From IMG/VR virus record IMGVR_UViG_2698536418_000022: a DNA stretch of 26,501 nucleotides, one strand, 5' to 3'. Of this stretch, positions 13,986 to 26,501 are shown one piece after another. A model generated the notes under the pieces. That model was not told where the DNA came from. It saw nothing but the letters and a program-made list of their open reading frames with translations, and made no database searches. Numbering within the stretch: the first letter of the stretch is position 1; every line of letters starts with the position of its first letter. This stretch comes from a virus. Lineage: Duplodnaviria > Heunggongvirae > Uroviricota > Caudoviricetes. Made by a program: the position numbers and the translations under genes.

Positions 13986-14360
13986 GACTCTCCAGCTCCT
14001 GTATCAGTCAGATAATTTCACGACGCTTTCCTGCTTATTGCCATCATCGACGGTCAGATTCTTACGCAATCCCACTGCGCTGACTGCATGTTCTCGCCGC
14101 CTCAGTGCGATTTTGACGGCCTTACCTTTCACCCCATCAAACCAGAATCCCTCACGTATTTTTCACGCTCAGCGTGAGAAATACGGCCATTCTGTCGTGT
14201 CGCTGCGACATCGTTAAGGGAACGCTATTTACCCCCCTGAAACGCGGGCTGTTCCCCCGTCACCTGCGCGCAGAAAAAACGCGTTTTTTTGTGCACGTAC
14301 GGATCCTTGACGGATCCAGCCACCACGCGGGCCGGAAGTACAAAAAGTCGTTCAAAAAAA

Positions 14361-14390
14361 TTGTGCAAACTTGTGCACTATCGTGCAAAC
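14361..14390. repeat. three 10-bp-phased copies of TGTGCA(A/C) (TTGTGCAAAC / TTGTGCACTA / TCGTGCAAAC)
   Basis: Direct inspection; helically phased short repeats in the cos-proximal intergenic region. Confidence 0.5.
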
Positions 14391-14413
14391 AAAAAAAGCG
14401 CCTTATCGGCGCT
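14385..14413 (-). terminator. rho-independent terminator for the minus-strand small gene ending at 14423
   Basis: On the minus strand: stem AGCGCC / GGCGCT with a 5 nt loop, followed by TTTTTTTGTTT. Confidence 0.7.
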
Positions 14414-14422
14414 TCAAAAGTA

Positions 14423-14692
14423 TCAATTGTTGCTGTTTATTAATCGCCAACCACGAACATATGCTTCATAGGCATCTCTGTGCCTTACAGTTCCAGCCTG
14501 GCTAAACGGAATGTTAGCTAAAACTAAATCATTCTGAGCCATAGCGCGTCCTTCAAGCGCATCTTTTATGCCTAGCTCAAAAGCACAGGCAGCGCATTTG
14601 TGCCGACCTTCTTGTCCTTGATATTCAGGGAGAGACAGAAATGTTGGATTATAACGATGAGGGTTCTTGCAAATACCTGTTTTAGCCCGCAC
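14423..14692 (-). CDS. hypothetical small protein (89 aa if GTG start at 14692; 39 aa if ATG at 14542)
   Basis: ORF followed by a strong terminator. Contains C/H-rich segment (CKNPH...HKCAAC). No confident family assignment from sequence alone. Confidence 0.35.
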   Translation of the reverse strand: MRAKTGICKNPHRYNPTFLSLPEYQGQEGRHKCAACAFELGIKDALEGRAMAQNDLVLANIPFSQAGTVRHRDAYEAYVRGWRLINSNN

Positions 14693-14715
14693 TTTATTTA
14701 CCTCATAGGAAAAAT

Positions 14716-14802
14716 ATGCGTGCCTTTACAGAGGTGCGTGTAAGCAATAAAATATACGACGCACATTTTGATTTACTTCGGAAGGCACGCATATCAGGTT
14801 AA
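14716..14802 (+). CDS. candidate 28-aa small ORF (MRAFTEVRVSNKIYDAHFDLLRKARISG); may instead be a small RNA
   Basis: ATG at 14716 with AGGA 6 nt upstream, followed 20 nt downstream by a strong plus-strand terminator. Internal inverted repeat GCGTGCCTT / AAGGCACGC. Confidence 0.3.
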   Translation: MRAFTEVRVSNKIYDAHFDLLRKARISG

Positions 14803-14821
14803 GTGAGTCCGACCGAGTTTT

Positions 14822-14856
14822 ACGCCCCAATAGTTGCTGCTATTGGGGCGTTTTGC
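14822..14856 (+). terminator. rho-independent terminator (plus strand)
   Basis: Stem CGCCCCAATAG / CTATTGGGGCG (11 bp) with a 6 nt loop, followed by TTTT. Confidence 0.7.
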
Positions 14857-15056
14857 ATGGACAATGCCGCGCAATTATCTTGTCGCTCACAATGCGAACG
14901 ATCTTACAAAAAGGCACATTACTGTCAAGATAATTGATCGTTTTAATCGATAGATAATAGACAATCTATTTGTTTAACAGATCGATTATTGAAGTAAGTG
15001 TGCCAAATGGAATGATACTGTCTCTATAAACGTGAGCATTTTTCGCGCAGATGCTT

Positions 15057-15368
15057 TTACTCAGGAAATAACGCCCGGATATTCCCAGCCATCTGGCTGG
15101 TTATCTTAGCCACTGGTGCAGACTGTGCTTCAAACTTTTTTGAGCTGATTTGTGTCACAGGTAACATCTCATCATCAGCCCATGCGGCCAGTCGGTAAGC
15201 CTCTGCCGGATTCGTCTTCAGAAGTGCCAGCCCGGCCAGAAAAGCCACGCGTTGGCCGCTTTTGCGGGCTTCTGGTGTAAGGCTGTCCAGCCAGGCGCAT
15301 GCTTCTCCTTCGTTCTTGACGGCGGCGGGCTTCAGATAGAAACTTATCCGTCTGGTTGGTGTCGTCAT
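15057..15368 (-). CDS. parR: ParR-like centromere-binding adaptor (type II partition)
   Basis: Start placed at ATG 15366-15368, 4 nt after the parM stop with AAGGAG RBS. N-terminal RRISFYLKP...VAFLAGLALL and C-terminal IRALFP resemble recalled plasmid R1 ParR (RRTIAFKLNP...LTAGLALY...LRSLFP). Confidence 0.7.
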   Translation of the reverse strand: MTTPTRRISFYLKPAAVKNEGEACAWLDSLTPEARKSGQRVAFLAGLALLKTNPAEAYRLAAWADDEMLPVTQISSKKFEAQSAPVAKITSQMAGNIRALFPE

Positions 15369-15372
15369 TGGT

Positions 15373-16332
15373 TTACTCCTTGTCCATTGCGTACAGCCCA
15401 TTAACCAGAGCAAACTGTGGCACCCCGTCCGCGATGAAAGTCGCATTAACTCCGCAGGCTTCGCGGATAGCGGGTGCCACAATCTCCGCCCCGCCACCGA
15501 CAACCATCACCCGCCCGTAACCCGAAAAAACCGCCAGCGCGCGGATCACGCGTTGTTTCAGTGTTTCTTCCTTTTCACGAATAACCGCCATCAGGCTGGC
15601 GTAATGCGCGTCATTGTGGATGTGCTGGCGCAGCCAGGCTTCATTATGGCGATGTTCGATAATGGTATTGGCGATGTGGTGACTGGTGCGCATACCGTTA
15701 GTGGCCATCACCGACAGTACGGCATCGGCCATAAGAGAAACGCCTACGTGTGGATCGCAAAACACCTGGCTGATACCTGCCAGTTGCCCCTGAACCTTTG
15801 CCACATCCAGCGTGGTTCCGCCCAAATCCACAATCAGCAGGGATTCAAACGGACTCATGTCAGCCAGTGCTTTAAAGCCAGCCGGAATGGATTCAGGCAT
15901 AACCCGTACGTTACGGATAGTGAATGCTTCGCCGTTCTGGTACTCCACCGGGCGCATGACGTTCGCTTTTTTGCGGTTGATGTTGGCCATGTCCGGCTGT
16001 GCGTTTGTGTCGAAATATTCGCTCAGTGGCAGGGTAACAACCACATCCACTTCCTGTGGCGTGATGTCTGATTTGACCAGCGCGTGATGAATGGCAATGA
16101 CATTCACATCGCTGTACTGGTATTGCGTGTCGGTCGTCTGGACAAAGCGATCGCTGACCGGATCAAAACCATAGCGCACGCCATCAAGCATGTAGTTAGC
16201 AGGCTGCGAGCCACCGAACGGCGCAGACCATTCCGACTTGAAGCTGTTCGGGCTGATGGCGTTGCGGCGTTCGCCGTTCTCAGTCCATGCCAGCTTGATG
16301 TTGGTGGAGCCGTCGTCGATGTAAATTTTCAT
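15373..16332 (-). CDS. parM: ParM/StbA-like actin-family segregation ATPase
   Basis: 319 aa. IDDGSTNIKL, ISPNSFK, YSDVNVIAIHHAL, VMPESIPAG, SLLIVDLGGTTLD, FSGYGRVMVVGGGAE blocks are near-collinear with recalled plasmid R1 ParM. ATG at 16330-16332 with AAGGA RBS. Confidence 0.85.
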   Translation of the reverse strand: MKIYIDDGSTNIKLAWTENGERRNAISPNSFKSEWSAPFGGSQPANYMLDGVRYGFDPVSDRFVQTTDTQYQYSDVNVIAIHHALVKSDITPQEVDVVVTLPLSEYFDTNAQPDMANINRKKANVMRPVEYQNGEAFTIRNVRVMPESIPAGFKALADMSPFESLLIVDLGGTTLDVAKVQGQLAGISQVFCDPHVGVSLMADAVLSVMATNGMRTSHHIANTIIEHRHNEAWLRQHIHNDAHYASLMAVIREKEETLKQRVIRALAVFSGYGRVMVVGGGAEIVAPAIREACGVNATFIADGVPQFALVNGLYAMDKE

Positions 16333-22951: not shown

Positions 22952-23260
22952 ATGCTTATCGGTGAAAAAATTAGAGTGATTCGTGAATCAGAGGATTTAA
23001 CGCGCGAAGAATTTTGCGGCCTGATTGATGTGCCTATCGGCACTTTGCGTCGTTATGAAACGGGGCGGATTGAAAACATAGGGGGCGAAGTGCTTATCAA
23101 GATTGTTAATCACCCTCGCTTTTTTAAGTACATGAATTGGCTTATGACGGGAAAAACAAATGAGGCTGCTGGGCAGATCAGTCCGTCTCTCTCCCCTGAT
23201 GGGCCAAAAAGCACATCGCCTTCTCAAAAACCCCGCAAGACTGGCACACAGCCCGGCTAA
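22952..23260 (+). CDS. immunity repressor (P2 C-like)
   Basis: Start placed at ATG 22952 (MLIGEKIRVIRESEDLTREEF...). HTH plus FFKYMNWLMTGK...AAGQISPSL resembles recalled P2 C (FTKYTLWFMT...ESGQIAPAL). Confidence 0.8.
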   Translation: MLIGEKIRVIRESEDLTREEFCGLIDVPIGTLRRYETGRIENIGGEVLIKIVNHPRFFKYMNWLMTGKTNEAAGQISPSLSPDGPKSTSPSQKPRKTGTQPG

Positions 23261-23309: not shown

Positions 23310-24287
23310 ATGAGCATAAAATCAATTCCGGGAGGGTATCTTCTTGACATGCGCCCTGAGGGGCGTAAAGGCAAACGCATTCGCAAAAAATTTAAAACGA
23401 AATCGGATGCAGTTTTATATGAGCGGTGGGTGCTGGCGCAACAGCATAACAATGAGTGGAAAGGAAACTCTATTGATCGCCGTCCTCTGTCAGTGCTTAT
23501 TGACTTGTGGTGGAAATACCACGGCCAGCTAATGAAGTCAGGGCATAACACGCGCCTTAAATTGCTGCGCTTGAGTGAGGCAATGGATGACCCGTGCGTG
23601 CATAAACTTAATACAACAATGCTCACCGAGCTACGTGTGTCCAGGATAGAGCAGGGGATACAGCCCAGCACCATAAATCGAGAGATTGGGGCGTTAAGCG
23701 CGATGTTTACCGCACTCATCTCATCCGGCCATTTTCTTAATGATAACCCCGTTCAAGGCCTTAAAGGAATGAAGGTTAACGAGCGTGAAATGGGATATCT
23801 GAGTAAGTCTGAATGTGTTCAGTTGCTGGATGCACTGGCTGAAAATCCCGATGAACGGCTGGCTGTCGAAATCCTTCTGTCGACCGGGGCGCGATGGGGC
23901 GAGGTAGCGGCACTGGAGCAGCGCCGTGTTCTTCATTGTCGAATCACTTTTTCAAAAACGAAGAACAGCAAAAACCGTACCGTTCCTATTTCTGAAAGCC
24001 TGTTTGAAAAGATCAAAAAACGGGGCGGGAAACTGGTGTTTCCGACGCTGGATTATCCATTGGTTCGCGATGTCATCAAAACGGTCGCACCTGATGTTCC
24101 CGACGGCCAGGCTGTTCATGCGCTGCGCCACACCTTCGCCAGTCATTTCATGATGAACGGCGGCAATATTCTGACGCTCCAGAAAATTCTGGGGCACGCA
24201 AAGATTCAGACAACGATGATTTATGCCCATCTTGCGCCGGATTACTTGCAGGATGCGGTGAGGTTTAATCCCTTGGGAGGAATGTAA
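23310..24287 (+). CDS. int: tyrosine integrase (P2 Int-like)
   Basis: Start placed at ATG 23310 (MSIKSIPGGYLLDMRPEGRKGKRIRKKF...), matching recalled P2 Int. Catalytic-region motifs LSTGARWGE, HALRHTFASHF, LGH...IYAH present. Confidence 0.9.
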   Translation: MSIKSIPGGYLLDMRPEGRKGKRIRKKFKTKSDAVLYERWVLAQQHNNEWKGNSIDRRPLSVLIDLWWKYHGQLMKSGHNTRLKLLRLSEAMDDPCVHKLNTTMLTELRVSRIEQGIQPSTINREIGALSAMFTALISSGHFLNDNPVQGLKGMKVNEREMGYLSKSECVQLLDALAENPDERLAVEILLSTGARWGEVAALEQRRVLHCRITFSKTKNSKNRTVPISESLFEKIKKRGGKLVFPTLDYPLVRDVIKTVAPDVPDGQAVHALRHTFASHFMMNGGNILTLQKILGHAKIQTTMIYAHLAPDYLQDAVRFNPLGGM

Positions 24288-24289
24288 CT

Positions 24290-24790
24290 ATGGAAATAAA
24301 AAAACCTACAAAAAAAGAGTTATATGACTATTTACTATCGAAATATATAGAAGATAAATGCAAAGAAGAAGCTGATGAAATCAATAAGAAGTCGATGAGT
24401 CGTGTCAAAAAACATAAAGAGCGGCTGATGGAGATTACGCCAGAAATCTTCTTCCGTTTCTTGTCTGAGAAGGGGGTCTCCAGTGTCTGCCCTTCATGTG
24501 GATCGTCGCGATTATCTATTCCTGAAAGTATGGATCTTTGTTGGGATAAAAATAAGAAACCAGAAAATTTTAACAATCTACCCTTGGAGGAGCAGAGTGA
24601 GTTAATTAAAGAGAACATAAAGCATTATGTATCTTATACTTTTTTTGGTGATGTTAAGAGCATACCTGATATGCGCAAAACTTATTACACGCTGCATTGC
24701 CTGAATTGTGGTTACCTGAGCCTTTACCGTACGTCTGCGGTGCTGAAGTGGTTGGAGAAAGACAAAGCGCAGGATGGTGAAAATGGGTAA
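24290..24790 (+). CDS. hypothetical protein with a four-cysteine zinc-ribbon-like signature (166 aa), AT-rich cargo
   Basis: ATG at 24290, 2 nt after the int stop, with GGGAGG RBS. CPSCG and CLNCG pairs; lysine/glutamate-rich; AT-rich compared with the phage backbone by eye. Confidence 0.6.
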   Translation: MEIKKPTKKELYDYLLSKYIEDKCKEEADEINKKSMSRVKKHKERLMEITPEIFFRFLSEKGVSSVCPSCGSSRLSIPESMDLCWDKNKKPENFNNLPLEEQSELIKENIKHYVSYTFFGDVKSIPDMRKTYYTLHCLNCGYLSLYRTSAVLKWLEKDKAQDGENG

Positions 24791-24890
24791 TGCAGCAAGA
24801 AACCTTTTCGGTAATTCAGCAGGTAGTATGTCGCATTCTGAGCGTGATGTGCTTTATCATGGCGGCGATGGCGGCAGTAGTGGAGGCGGA

Positions 24891-25328
24891 ATGTCAGATA
24901 AACTTGAAAGGCGAATTGAGCGACTCGAAGGTGATTTATCGCTAACAAGAAACGACCTTGCGACGCTTACTGAACGCACTACAAACCTCTCAACCAAAGC
25001 TGATGTTGGTGAGGTGAAAGGTGAGCTCAAAGCAGACATTGCTCATCTGAAAGGTGATCTTAAATGCGATATTGCGAATCTAAAAGGTGAGCTTAAATCT
25101 GATACAGCTCACCTGAAAGAGCAGCTCAAATCAGACATTAACAGCCTGAAGGGTGAGCTTACCGAAGCGATGGATAAACGCTTTGACAAGATTATGGATG
25201 AGATGAATCGGCGGTTTGACAAGGTTGATGATAATACGAAGTGGCGTTGGAGTGGCATTATTGTGCCAGTATGCACAACCATTTTCACGGCGGCGGTTGC
25301 TGTATTTGTTGCTAAATTTGTTGGCTGA
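24891..25328 (+). CDS. tail-anchored coiled-coil membrane protein with tandem 11-residue repeats (145 aa; longer if an upstream start is used)
   Basis: ATG at 24891 has the best RBS (GGAGG); alternative in-frame ATGs at 24774, 24783, 24828. Five 11-aa repeats (LKGELKADIAH-type) and a C-terminal hydrophobic anchor IIVPVCTTIFTAAVAVFVAKFVG. Confidence 0.6.
   Translation: MSDKLERRIERLEGDLSLTRNDLATLTERTTNLSTKADVGEVKGELKADIAHLKGDLKCDIANLKGELKSDTAHLKEQLKSDINSLKGELTEAMDKRFDKIMDEMNRRFDKVDDNTKWRWSGIIVPVCTTIFTAAVAVFVAKFVG
25017..25160 (+). repeat. four and a half tandem copies of a 33 bp repeat inside the coiled-coil gene
   Basis: Copies beginning AAAGGTGAGCT... at 25017, 25050, 25083, 25116 and a partial copy at 25149; each encodes one 11-aa repeat in frame. 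Confidence 0.7.
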
Positions 25329-25437
25329 TGATCCACAAATTGACCACATCCCTGTTATTTGTTGTGGTTGGCTGTGTTTTTGTGTGTCTGTAAGTCTTTG
25401 ATAATTATCTAACTTATTGATTTTTGCTTGTGTTTAT

Positions 25438-25463
25438 GGCCGCTCTGCGGCCTTTTTTCTTTT
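25438..25463 (+). terminator. rho-independent terminator (plus strand) between the cargo genes and btuC
   Basis: Stem GGCCGC / GCGGCC with loop TCT, followed by TTTTTTCTTTT. Confidence 0.7.
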
Positions 25464-25520: not shown

Positions 25521-26501
25521 ATGCTGACACTTGCCCGCCAACAACAGCGACAAAATATTCGCTGGTTATTATGCCTGTCAGTTTTGATGCTGCTGGCGCT
25601 TCTCTTAAGCCTTTGCGCCGGTGAACAATGGATCTCGCCAGGTGACTGGTTTACTCCTCGTGGCGAACTGTTCGTCTGGCAAATTCGCCTGCCACGTACG
25701 CTGGCTGTATTGCTGGTTGGTGCGGCGCTGGCTATATCCGGCGCTGTAATGCAGGCGTTGTTTGAAAATCCTCTGGCAGAACCTGGACTACTTGGCGTCT
25801 CTAACGGCGCAGGCGTGGGGCTTATCGCCGCGGTATTGCTTGGGCAAGGGCAACTCCCCAACTGGGCGCTAGGGCTGTGTGCGATTGCTGGCGCGCTTAT
25901 CATCACTTTAATACTCTTACGTTTCGCCCGTCGTCATCTTTCGACCAGTCGGTTATTGCTGGCTGGCGTTGCATTAGGGATTATCTGTAGCGCACTAATG
26001 ACGTGGGCTATCTACTTTTCCACCTCTGTTGATTTACGTCAGCTGATGTACTGGATGATGGGCGGTTTTGGCGGCGTAGACTGGCGGCAAAGCTGGCTGA
26101 TGCTGGCATTGATCCCCGTGTTGTTGTGGATCTGTTGTCAGTCCAGGCCGATGAATATGTTAGCACTTGGCGAGATCTCGGCGCGGCAACTGGGTTTACC
26201 CCTGTGGTTCTGGCGCAATGTGCTGGTGGCCGCGACCGGCTGGATGGTTGGCGTCAGTGTGGCGCTGGCGGGTGCTATCGGCTTTATTGGTCTGGTGATC
26301 CCACATATTCTTCGGTTGTGTGGTTTAACCGATCATCGCGTATTACTTCCCGGCTGCGCGCTGGCAGGGGCGAGCGCATTGCTGCTGGCCGATATTGTAG
26401 CGCGCCTGGCATTAGCTGCCGCAGAGCTGCCTATTGGCGTGGTCACCGCAACGTTGGGTGCGCCGGTGTTTATCTGGTTATTGTTAAAAGCAAGACGTTA
26501 G
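25521..26501 (+). CDS. btuC: vitamin B12 ABC transporter permease BtuC (host chromosomal gene)
   Basis: 326 aa, complete, N-terminus [15 protein letters not shown] and multi-TM FecCD-type permease features; recognised as Escherichia-type BtuC. Confidence 0.95.

Follow-up and report, generated by a model that had tools for sequence, protein, structure and literature searches.

A two-gene zinc-ribbon and membrane-stalk module downstream of immunity repressors in Enterobacterales prophages, a candidate exclusion or defence cargo

Prophage genes that belong to the repressor operon are made in every lysogenic cell. In phage lambda, rexA and rexB follow directly after cI, and to our knowledge the classic cargo of such operons (rexAB, sieB, old and tin) all protects against other phages. 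Here we describe a gene pair in a similar position in a 26,501-nucleotide stretch of Caudoviricetes DNA (IMG/VR record IMGVR_UViG_2698536418_000022; the whole stretch is referred to below as the window). Both genes lie on the forward strand between a tyrosine integrase gene and host btuC. Gene 1 (24290–24790) would encode a 166-residue soluble Cys4 zinc-ribbon protein, and gene 2 (24783–25328) a 181-residue tail-anchored stalk protein of the DUF1640/Bdr type. A reading of the bare sequence (the original prediction) had placed two open reading frames here, and both are present. The pair holds its position in at least three unrelated prophage architectures and in many Enterobacterales genera, and yet it is unnamed. 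We tentatively regard it, somewhat short of even confidence, as a candidate lysogen-expressed, membrane-tethered exclusion or defence module.

Lambda RexA/RexB provide one point of comparison. Like the pair, they form a two-gene module after an immunity repressor, on its strand, with one soluble and one membrane protein; pairs in lambdoid prophages of Rahnella and Photorhabdus even fill the gene position of rexAB. However, Pfam, PHROG and PADLOC gave no match of the pair to Rex proteins, and the two modules showed no similarity of sequence or fold. RexB is also polytopic, whereas the gene 2 product is predicted to be a single-pass, tail-anchored stalk. By analogy of position and composition, and without homology, the pair behaves like a Rex-type module.

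The accessory loci of P2-like phages provide a second comparison. The interval between int and the attachment (att) site has been reported as a minor defence hotspot that holds 3% of P2 systems (PMC13586616, a 2026 survey), and a third variability hotspot of these phages was placed between a tail gene and CI (bioRxiv 2024.10.15.618418). The latter is the wider stretch that contains att and int. Like the known P2 loci (old, tin, Z/fun and the int-att hotspot), the pair has the appearance of lysogen-beneficial cargo in a variable P2-like slot. Unlike them, it matches no described system and is not confined to P2-like phages. As a system, judged from sequence, the pair matches nothing described and could prove to be a new kind of defence system.

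The case for a module begins with linkage. Our sample comprised 15 loci with a gene 1 homologue, equivalent to 12 non-redundant loci at 22–100% identity. The original prediction hinged on linkage being conserved across genomes, and a gene 2-type partner does lie directly after gene 1 in all 12 non-redundant loci, always in the order gene 1 then gene 2. Either an 8-nucleotide ATGnnTAA overlap or an abutting start is kept in every locus examined, from 100% down to 22% identity. The layout of the partner protein, which runs from an N-terminal peptide through a Gly linker, a coil and a TK.D motif to a membrane anchor, is retained in 11 of the 12; the remaining partner (locus L045), as called, begins at the coil and lacks an equivalent of the peptide. 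A repressor gene shares the contig at 11 non-redundant loci (of 15 loci examined), and at all 11 the pair is downstream of the repressor and on its strand.

The prophages that carry the pair differ widely. P2-like prophages with the order C-int-pair-att occupy three att sites: ihfA/btuC in E. coli and Salmonella, dadX in Klebsiella and in an IMG/VR contig, and mntR/mntH in Serratia. A Dickeya prophage that also has a gene of the phage-186 Fil family shows the order CI-x-x-pair-int. Lambdoid prophages of Rahnella and Photorhabdus, together with one metagenome contig, place the pair directly after cI (helix-turn-helix (HTH) plus S24 peptidase), where it faces away from cro-cII-O-P. Co-occurrence beside unrelated integrases had been proposed as a check on the original prediction. 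The pair is indeed conserved, but its common denominator is a place downstream of the immunity repressor, including lambdoid loci without an adjacent integrase. The pair is therefore not a one-off but a conserved module, with diverged versions in different types of Enterobacterales prophage, and its position after the repressor across these types is a new result.

In the window, the pair belongs to the prophage and not to the host: it is cargo that lies between int and the att core. The region, which is 100% identical in E. coli O157:H7 FRIK944, is the right end of a P2/186-like prophage. Upstream lie replication gene A, a Cox-like gene, a C-type repressor and the tyrosine integrase; downstream are the host genes btuC-btuE-btuD. 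In E. coli K-12, ihfA and btuC are just 100 bp apart, and K-12 homology restarts at window position 25438. This is the first base of the att core (25438–25462, forward strand; GGCCGCTCTGCGGCCTTTTTTCTTT), an intrinsic terminator that copies the host ihfA terminator. The 25 bp are identical at attL (locus L036) and attR in FRIK944 and single-copy in K-12. Because K-12 is without the region and the core is duplicated at both prophage ends, downstream of the pair, the pair lies inside the prophage. The same two facts rule out that the genes are ordinary chromosomal neighbours of btuC in prophage-free relatives, a possibility raised with the original prediction. Its picture of AT-rich, moron-type accessory cargo was borne out: GC content falls to 37.9% in gene 1 and 45.2% in gene 2, compared with 52.8% in the prophage part and 55.2% in btuC, and the pair sits within the prophage in a variable accessory slot.

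From their start and stop signals, the two genes appear to be coupled in translation and to make up a single module, an accessory load within the lysogenic (repressor) operon. As had been predicted, gene 1 starts 2 nucleotides past the int stop (TAA, 24285–24287; gene 1 ATG at 24290) behind a strong ribosome-binding site. Read from the sequence, this is a GGGAGG Shine-Dalgarno element within the 3′ end of int (24275–24280, forward strand), 9 nucleotides before the ATG. The gene 2 ATG at 24783 (MGNAA...) overlaps the gene 1 stop by 8 nucleotides (ATGGGTAA), an overlap that is retained in Salmonella, Klebsiella and other alleles. This is most likely the true start, because homologues begin there (MGN/MSN) and some have no ATG at 24774. 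The upstream ATG at 24774, taken as the start in the original prediction, was rejected for the same reasons. RefSeq starts the gene at 24891 and so drops 36 N-terminal residues (24783–24890) that are conserved at the protein level.

The lysogenic operon begins with the P2 C-type immunity repressor, an HTH protein encoded on the forward strand at 22952–23260 (Pfam HTH_3; phrog_147, 3e-30; a RefSeq coding sequence in FRIK944). The tyrosine integrase follows on the same strand at 23310–24287, with Int_N and Phage_integrase domains (Pfam 1.5e-28 and 8e-20; phrog_1, 5.5e-73). From C to the att core, a scan detected neither a promoter-like nor a terminator-like site, although it was insensitive enough to miss the repressor promoter Pc too. 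Downstream of the pair, the sole terminator-like site is a hairpin at 25438–25452, with 6 GC pairs followed by a T-run. Given the 2-nucleotide gap, the lack of an intervening promoter-like or terminator-like site and the first terminator at the att core, co-transcription of the pair with C and int, as originally suggested, is plausible. The accompanying statement that the pair ends at a terminator needs qualifying. The hairpin is the only candidate, but it begins 110 nucleotides beyond the gene 2 stop and belongs to the copied ihfA terminator. With the att core as its terminator, the pair has one that is half phage and half host in origin.

Gene 1 is a predicted soluble Cys4 zinc-ribbon protein, in agreement with the original prediction. 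It comprises a long N-terminal helix, a zinc-ribbon core and a C-terminal helix with an invariant Trp. Four cysteines in two CxxC knuckles (C67, C70, C137 and C140) are invariant among 25 sequences down to 22% identity; 2 further Cys of the window protein are not conserved. Trp154 is invariant across the family, and gene 1 proteins have no hydrophobic segment. An AlphaFold2 (AF2) model with a predicted local distance difference test (pLDDT) value of 86.8 has the long N-terminal helix, a short FxxFL helix, a beta-rich core (strands 79–83, 110–118, 131–137 and 143–147) and the C-terminal helix. In the model both knuckles sit on beta-hairpins, and the core contains an inserted variable segment. 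The two hairpin-borne knuckles are shared with generic zinc ribbons (rubredoxin-like knuckles; the Zn_ribbon_13, CpXC and TFIIB types). In contrast to these, gene 1 falls under every model cut-off, its knuckles are ~66 residues apart with the variable segment between them, and it has family-specific flanking helices, one with FxxFL ahead of the first knuckle and one with the invariant Trp after the second.

Database searches place gene 1 in a family of its own. It is assigned to phrog_4293, a function-unassigned family, and to no Pfam family; family members match several zinc-ribbon models, all below threshold. Foldseek against BFVD returned nothing under E 1e-3, and a gene 1 profile against PDB sequences gave ribosomal zinc-ribbon noise alone (E ≥ 0.1). 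Solved or viral predicted structures match merely as generic helices or ribbons. Relatives found by word-indexed search are from Enterobacterales only. An exhaustive profile search of 1.84 billion representatives recovered 173 gene 1 clusters at E ≤ 1e-3, all of 50–180 residues; the named ones come from Serratia, Dickeya, Pantoea/Mixta, Pluralibacter, Photorhabdus and Rahnella. A tblastn search of 50,697 phage records and 72,556 plasmids found no match, a blank that reflects limited sensitivity, because divergent type B copies (see below) occur in a Klebsiella record of that phage collection.

Gene 2 had been described as a repeat-rich, coiled-coil, tail-anchored membrane protein, and each element of this description was recovered. 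Residues 1–26 (24783–24860) form a variable N-terminal peptide with a conserved aromatic (..NLFG..) and are predicted to be disordered (AF2 pLDDT < 50 for residues 1–33). Residues 27–36 (24861–24890) are a Gly/Asp/Ser-rich linker, GGDGGSSGGG. In an IMG/VR contig (L025), this linker has extra GGD units, GGDGGDGGDGGDGGSSGGG, which suggests slippage-prone DNA encoding a length-tolerant tether. The AF2 model continues with a helix at 37–67, a break at residues 68–71 (LSTKAD), a helix at 72–146 with five repeats and a helix at 150–180. LSTKAD itself (residues 69–74; 24987–25004) is the beta-layer motif of DUF1640 stalks, in which T71, K72 and D74 are invariant among 16 sequences.

The repeats are five 11-residue (33-bp) units, xLKGELKxDIAx, at 25014–25178, delimited by register, periodicity and Tandem Repeats Finder, which by itself reports a 33-bp period in 3.8 copies at 25015–25139. 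Hydrophobic periodicity peaks at 3.67, the value of a hendecad and not a heptad. Homologues measure 123, 134, 145 and 156 residues, in steps of 11, so repeat number varies between alleles. The predicted C-terminal transmembrane anchor, IIVPVCTTIFTAAVAVFVA, spans residues 159–177 (25257–25313; Kyte-Doolittle 19-residue mean 2.43) and is followed by only 4 residues, KFVG, and the stop. A single C-terminal hydrophobic segment is shared by all 12 partner proteins. The stalk is expected to be cytoplasmic, since the protein lacks a signal peptide and its N-terminal part is large and hydrophilic. Some relatives have a Pro/Gln-rich tail beyond the membrane segment, which would fit a periplasmic C terminus.

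Gene 2 has recognisable relatives. It matches phrog_9415 (1e-14), and RefSeq assigns its short form to the DUF1640/CCDC90 family. Against Pfam PF07798 it scores 26.5 bits, under the cut-off of 33.5, while several cluster representatives that are 80–96% identical carry a precomputed PF07798 match. We therefore take it, on sequence grounds, to be a borderline member of the DUF1640/CCDC90-like proteins and a distant relative of Bdr. The original prediction that neither product is recognisable as phage structural or replication machinery stands in that neither protein matches such families in Pfam or PHROG, but gene 2 can be recognised as a DUF1640/Bdr-type stalk. We know of no function for any prokaryotic DUF1640 member. 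Literature searches that paired DUF1640 or CCDC90 with phage turned up no study of what the gene pair does.

The DUF1640/CCDC90-like proteins (PF07798; mitochondrial MCUR1 and CCDC90B, and prokaryotic 6h9l) share with gene 2 a membrane anchor, a beta-layer motif at the start of the stalk and hendecad-type repeats. The motif has been defined as [aliphatic]-A-T-K-[polar]-[DE] (PMC4786415). It is present in all 12 non-redundant partners, with Ser in place of Ala in the window protein. The gene 2 family profile matches PDB 6h9l (E 0.0015), repeat on repeat, against its ATKEDIEALRK repeats; this prokaryotic structure has three identical chains and was deposited as an uncharacterised protein. Unlike other DUF1640 proteins, gene 2 adds the disordered N-terminal peptide and Gly-rich tether, and it has an obligatory zinc-ribbon partner gene that is missing from the others sampled. 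For example, neither a zinc-ribbon neighbour nor the peptide and linker accompanies the DUF1640-type stalks in Liberibacter SC2, in APSE-1 and on an Aliivibrio plasmid. The zinc-ribbon partner and the tethered peptide co-occur and appear to define a distinct stalk subfamily. A Dickeya gene 2 homologue (L051, 3931–4563) has six tandem FATKADLQN nonads, an alpha/beta coiled-coil repeat. They are repeated beta-layer units of the kind seen in Thermosinus Tcar0761, whose MATKDDIAN repeats reportedly served to define alpha/beta coiled coils.

Bdr proteins of Borrelia carry 11-residue repeats. In tblastn, gene 2 matches bdr genes at 35–37% identity over ~100 residues (E 4e-6), through residues 51–153 (stalk and repeats). 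Bdr proteins associate with the inner membrane, are encoded on cp32 prophages and have so far no assigned function (PMC10016077). Gene 2 resembles those of cp32 prophages and linear plasmids in its variable number of 11-residue repeats, C-terminal hydrophobic anchor, predicted inner-membrane association and prophage-like carriers. However, the two differ in host and in element. The bdr genes are transcribed from promoters of their own and are not known to have a zinc-ribbon partner, and most of the similarity falls in the repeat region. Orthology with Bdr subfamilies was not supported by tblastn, in which the N-terminal peptide and linker of gene 2 had no Bdr counterpart.

How variable the int-att slot is can be seen within E. 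coli. In a census of 5426 complete genomes, the phage arm beside the core is present in 303 and this integrase in 299. The arm in question, the AT-rich (33% GC) P′ arm of the att site (25329–25437), is 96–100% conserved in the 303 genomes regardless of cargo, and we infer that it binds integrase. Three types of the pair fill the slot: type A, the window's, in 23 genomes, type B in 14 and type C in 86, or 123 of 5426 in all (>2%). The commonest filling is an unrelated single gene of 131 codons (the O104:H4 type; 158 genomes). Its product, encoded for example at L037 1409–1804 (E. coli O104:H4 C227-11), is a soluble protein that matches nothing in Pfam or PADLOC. Alleles of the pair itself are mosaic. 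Between the window and TUM1880, identity is 30% in gene 1, 10% in the gene 2 peptide and 99% throughout the part downstream of the Gly linker; this comparison marks the linker as a recombination joint between alleles. By sequence, this exchange of alleles and cargo at a single site follows the pattern reported for P2-like accessory and defence hotspots.

Type B has a shorter gene 1, and its gene 2 starts at a GTG right after the gene 1 stop. At the two type B junctions inspected (L002 4486–4491; L013 4998–5003), both genes are in one frame, split by a single stop codon and then GTG (TGAGTG or TAAGTG). Stop-codon read-through would yield one fused protein, a possibility raised by the sequence. 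RefSeq often leaves type B gene 1 uncalled; in TUM1880 (L002 4090–4488), it is uncalled and the integrase coding sequence is extended instead.

If the pair is an exclusion or defence module, several steps can be envisaged. In a lysogen, transcription would run from the repressor promoter across int and into the pair, stopping at the att-core terminator. The gene 2 protein would trimerise, for which the profile match to trimeric 6h9l gives indirect support, and insert in the inner membrane with its stalk in the cytoplasm. The gene 1 protein would dock on the stalk or on the tethered peptide to give a membrane-bound complex; that the two form a complex is suggested by their translational coupling and strict co-occurrence, and binding to the peptide in particular is weakly suggested by the sequences. 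This complex would shield the lysogen from other phages via exclusion or abortive infection, as a functional analogue, not a homologue, of RexA/RexB. Enzymatic domains are absent from both proteins, and so they would act by binding or sequestration of a phage or host component at the inner membrane, or by perturbing that membrane.

Several observations weigh against this proposal. Identities of the peptide and of gene 1 correlate poorly (Spearman 0.27, p = 0.16; 28 pairs), and the mosaic between the window and TUM1880 is explained equally by simple adjacency of the two genes. PADLOC-DB 2.0 (2023) holds no significant match to either window protein; the best are a ZorA tail (2e-5) and LmuB (5e-5) for gene 2 and DUF3800_VII (0.0047) for gene 1. 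No effector or sensor domain is recognisable in either of them. The promoter scan behind the proposed transcript was insensitive, since Pc itself was missed. One orphan copy of the pair lies between cdaR and yaeH in a Pantoea/Mixta chromosome with no surrounding prophage. Finally, the stalk family itself is no pointer to defence, because its relatives in SC2, APSE-1, Borrelia cp32 and plasmids lack an accompanying gene 1 and are not known to have a function.

Two more specific assignments were considered and rejected. Gene 2 is not a ZorA-like signalling tail: the matches sit in the coiled-coil tail and are equalled by LmuB and SMC-like matches, a sign of composition rather than homology. A holin or spanin role would rest on PHROG matches of only E 0.006–0.03, for a gene in a lysogeny operon far from the lysis genes. 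Types B and C of the pair likewise had no match in PADLOC-DB 2.0.

A bolder version of the defence proposal can also be put forward, although we consider it doubtful. Here the pair would be a new, enzyme-free anti-phage system of Enterobacterales prophages at the cytoplasmic face of the inner membrane, in which a trimeric alpha/beta coiled-coil stalk holds a peptide-docked zinc-ribbon sensor. Infection would displace or engage the sensor, and the stalk would then block genome entry or replication or collapse the membrane. If true, this would be the first function for prokaryotic DUF1640/Bdr-type proteins, a family found also in Borrelia cp32, Liberibacter, APSE phages and mitochondria. More generally, any phenotype for the pair would give a first functional handle, in a tractable organism, on DUF1640/Bdr, a family whose role in prokaryotes has been a question since the Borrelia studies of about 2000.

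Among other explanations, the one that survives best, although we think it unlikely, is that the pair serves the prophage's own lysogeny housekeeping. It might tether or sequester a regulator (repressor, antirepressor, Cox/Apl or Int) or the element's DNA at the membrane and so tune maintenance, induction or excision. Such a role would suit a pair that is always in the repressor operon and, in P2-likes, beside int. Stalk relatives also adjoin replication or maintenance genes, namely a primase in SC2, a DNA polymerase in APSE-1 and the replication locus of Borrelia cp32 (PMC10016077). Against this, the pair is dispensable for the lineage, given that 158 E. coli prophages with the same int and att carry the unrelated single gene. 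Its regulatory circuits also differ: it occurs with P2 C, with 186-type CI and with lambdoid cI/S24, and so no single partner regulator is conserved. The orphan chromosomal copy, which has no prophage around it, is a further difficulty.

That same orphan would be less awkward for an addiction module of the toxin-antitoxin kind, in which the membrane protein is toxic if over-produced or unpartnered and the zinc-ribbon protein neutralises it, stabilising the prophage. The two genes are small, tightly coupled and constant in order, and the second encodes a membrane protein. The same prophage also carries a Hok/Gef gene and a ParM/StbB-type partition system (both described below) and so collects stability functions. 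We nevertheless judge this idea improbable. A hydrophilic stalk of ~120 residues, with conserved beta-layer motifs and a variable repeat number, is unlike known small membrane toxins, and no toxin-antitoxin family was matched in Pfam, NCBIfam or PADLOC. Moreover, stalk relatives stand alone elsewhere, and so the stalk is not obligatorily toxic.

Rapid allele swapping and the replacement by unrelated cargo in one slot are typical of conflict systems, and they make it a little less probable again that the pair acts in host-directed lysogenic conversion, as an envelope or stress factor that alters host fitness in the gut or the environment independently of phages. Neither protein has a link to metabolic or virulence families. 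What speaks for such a factor is that Bdr relatives associate with the inner membrane and are made during infection of vertebrates (PMC10016077) and that the pair is enriched in animal- and plant-associated Enterobacterales. That the genes are chance or decaying open reading frames without function is hardly credible: RefSeq does leave type B gene 1 unannotated in TUM1880 and truncates gene 2, but both reading frames have stayed open, with their motifs conserved, in many genera and at identities from 100% down to 22%, their start/stop coupling is conserved, and gene 1 is modelled with the high pLDDT given above.

The candidate defence pair is not the only cargo of this prophage. P2 carries tin and old in the hotspot between gpA and the portal gene. 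In the window, the corresponding interval (15060–16332, reverse strand) encodes a ParM/StbA-type actin-like segregation ATPase (319 residues, Pfam 1e-80) and a StbB-type plasmid-stability protein (148 residues), which together make up a plasmid partition system within an integrated P2-like prophage. Beside these partition genes, at ~14000–15000, GC content is 41–49% and there are no recognisable genes. At the other prophage end in FRIK944, a toxin gene of the Hok/Gef family lies between ogr and attL (L036 10907–11047), and both prophage ends therefore carry small membrane-protein cargo beside the att site.

Beyond the right end, host btuC (25521–26501, forward strand; RefSeq) lies outside the prophage and is present in 5426 of the 5426 genomes. 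A 2026 survey of P2-like viruses lists the BtuC permease as an auxiliary metabolic gene (PMC13100340). Because the att site is directly upstream of btuC, this listing is probably an artefact of prophage-boundary overshoot.

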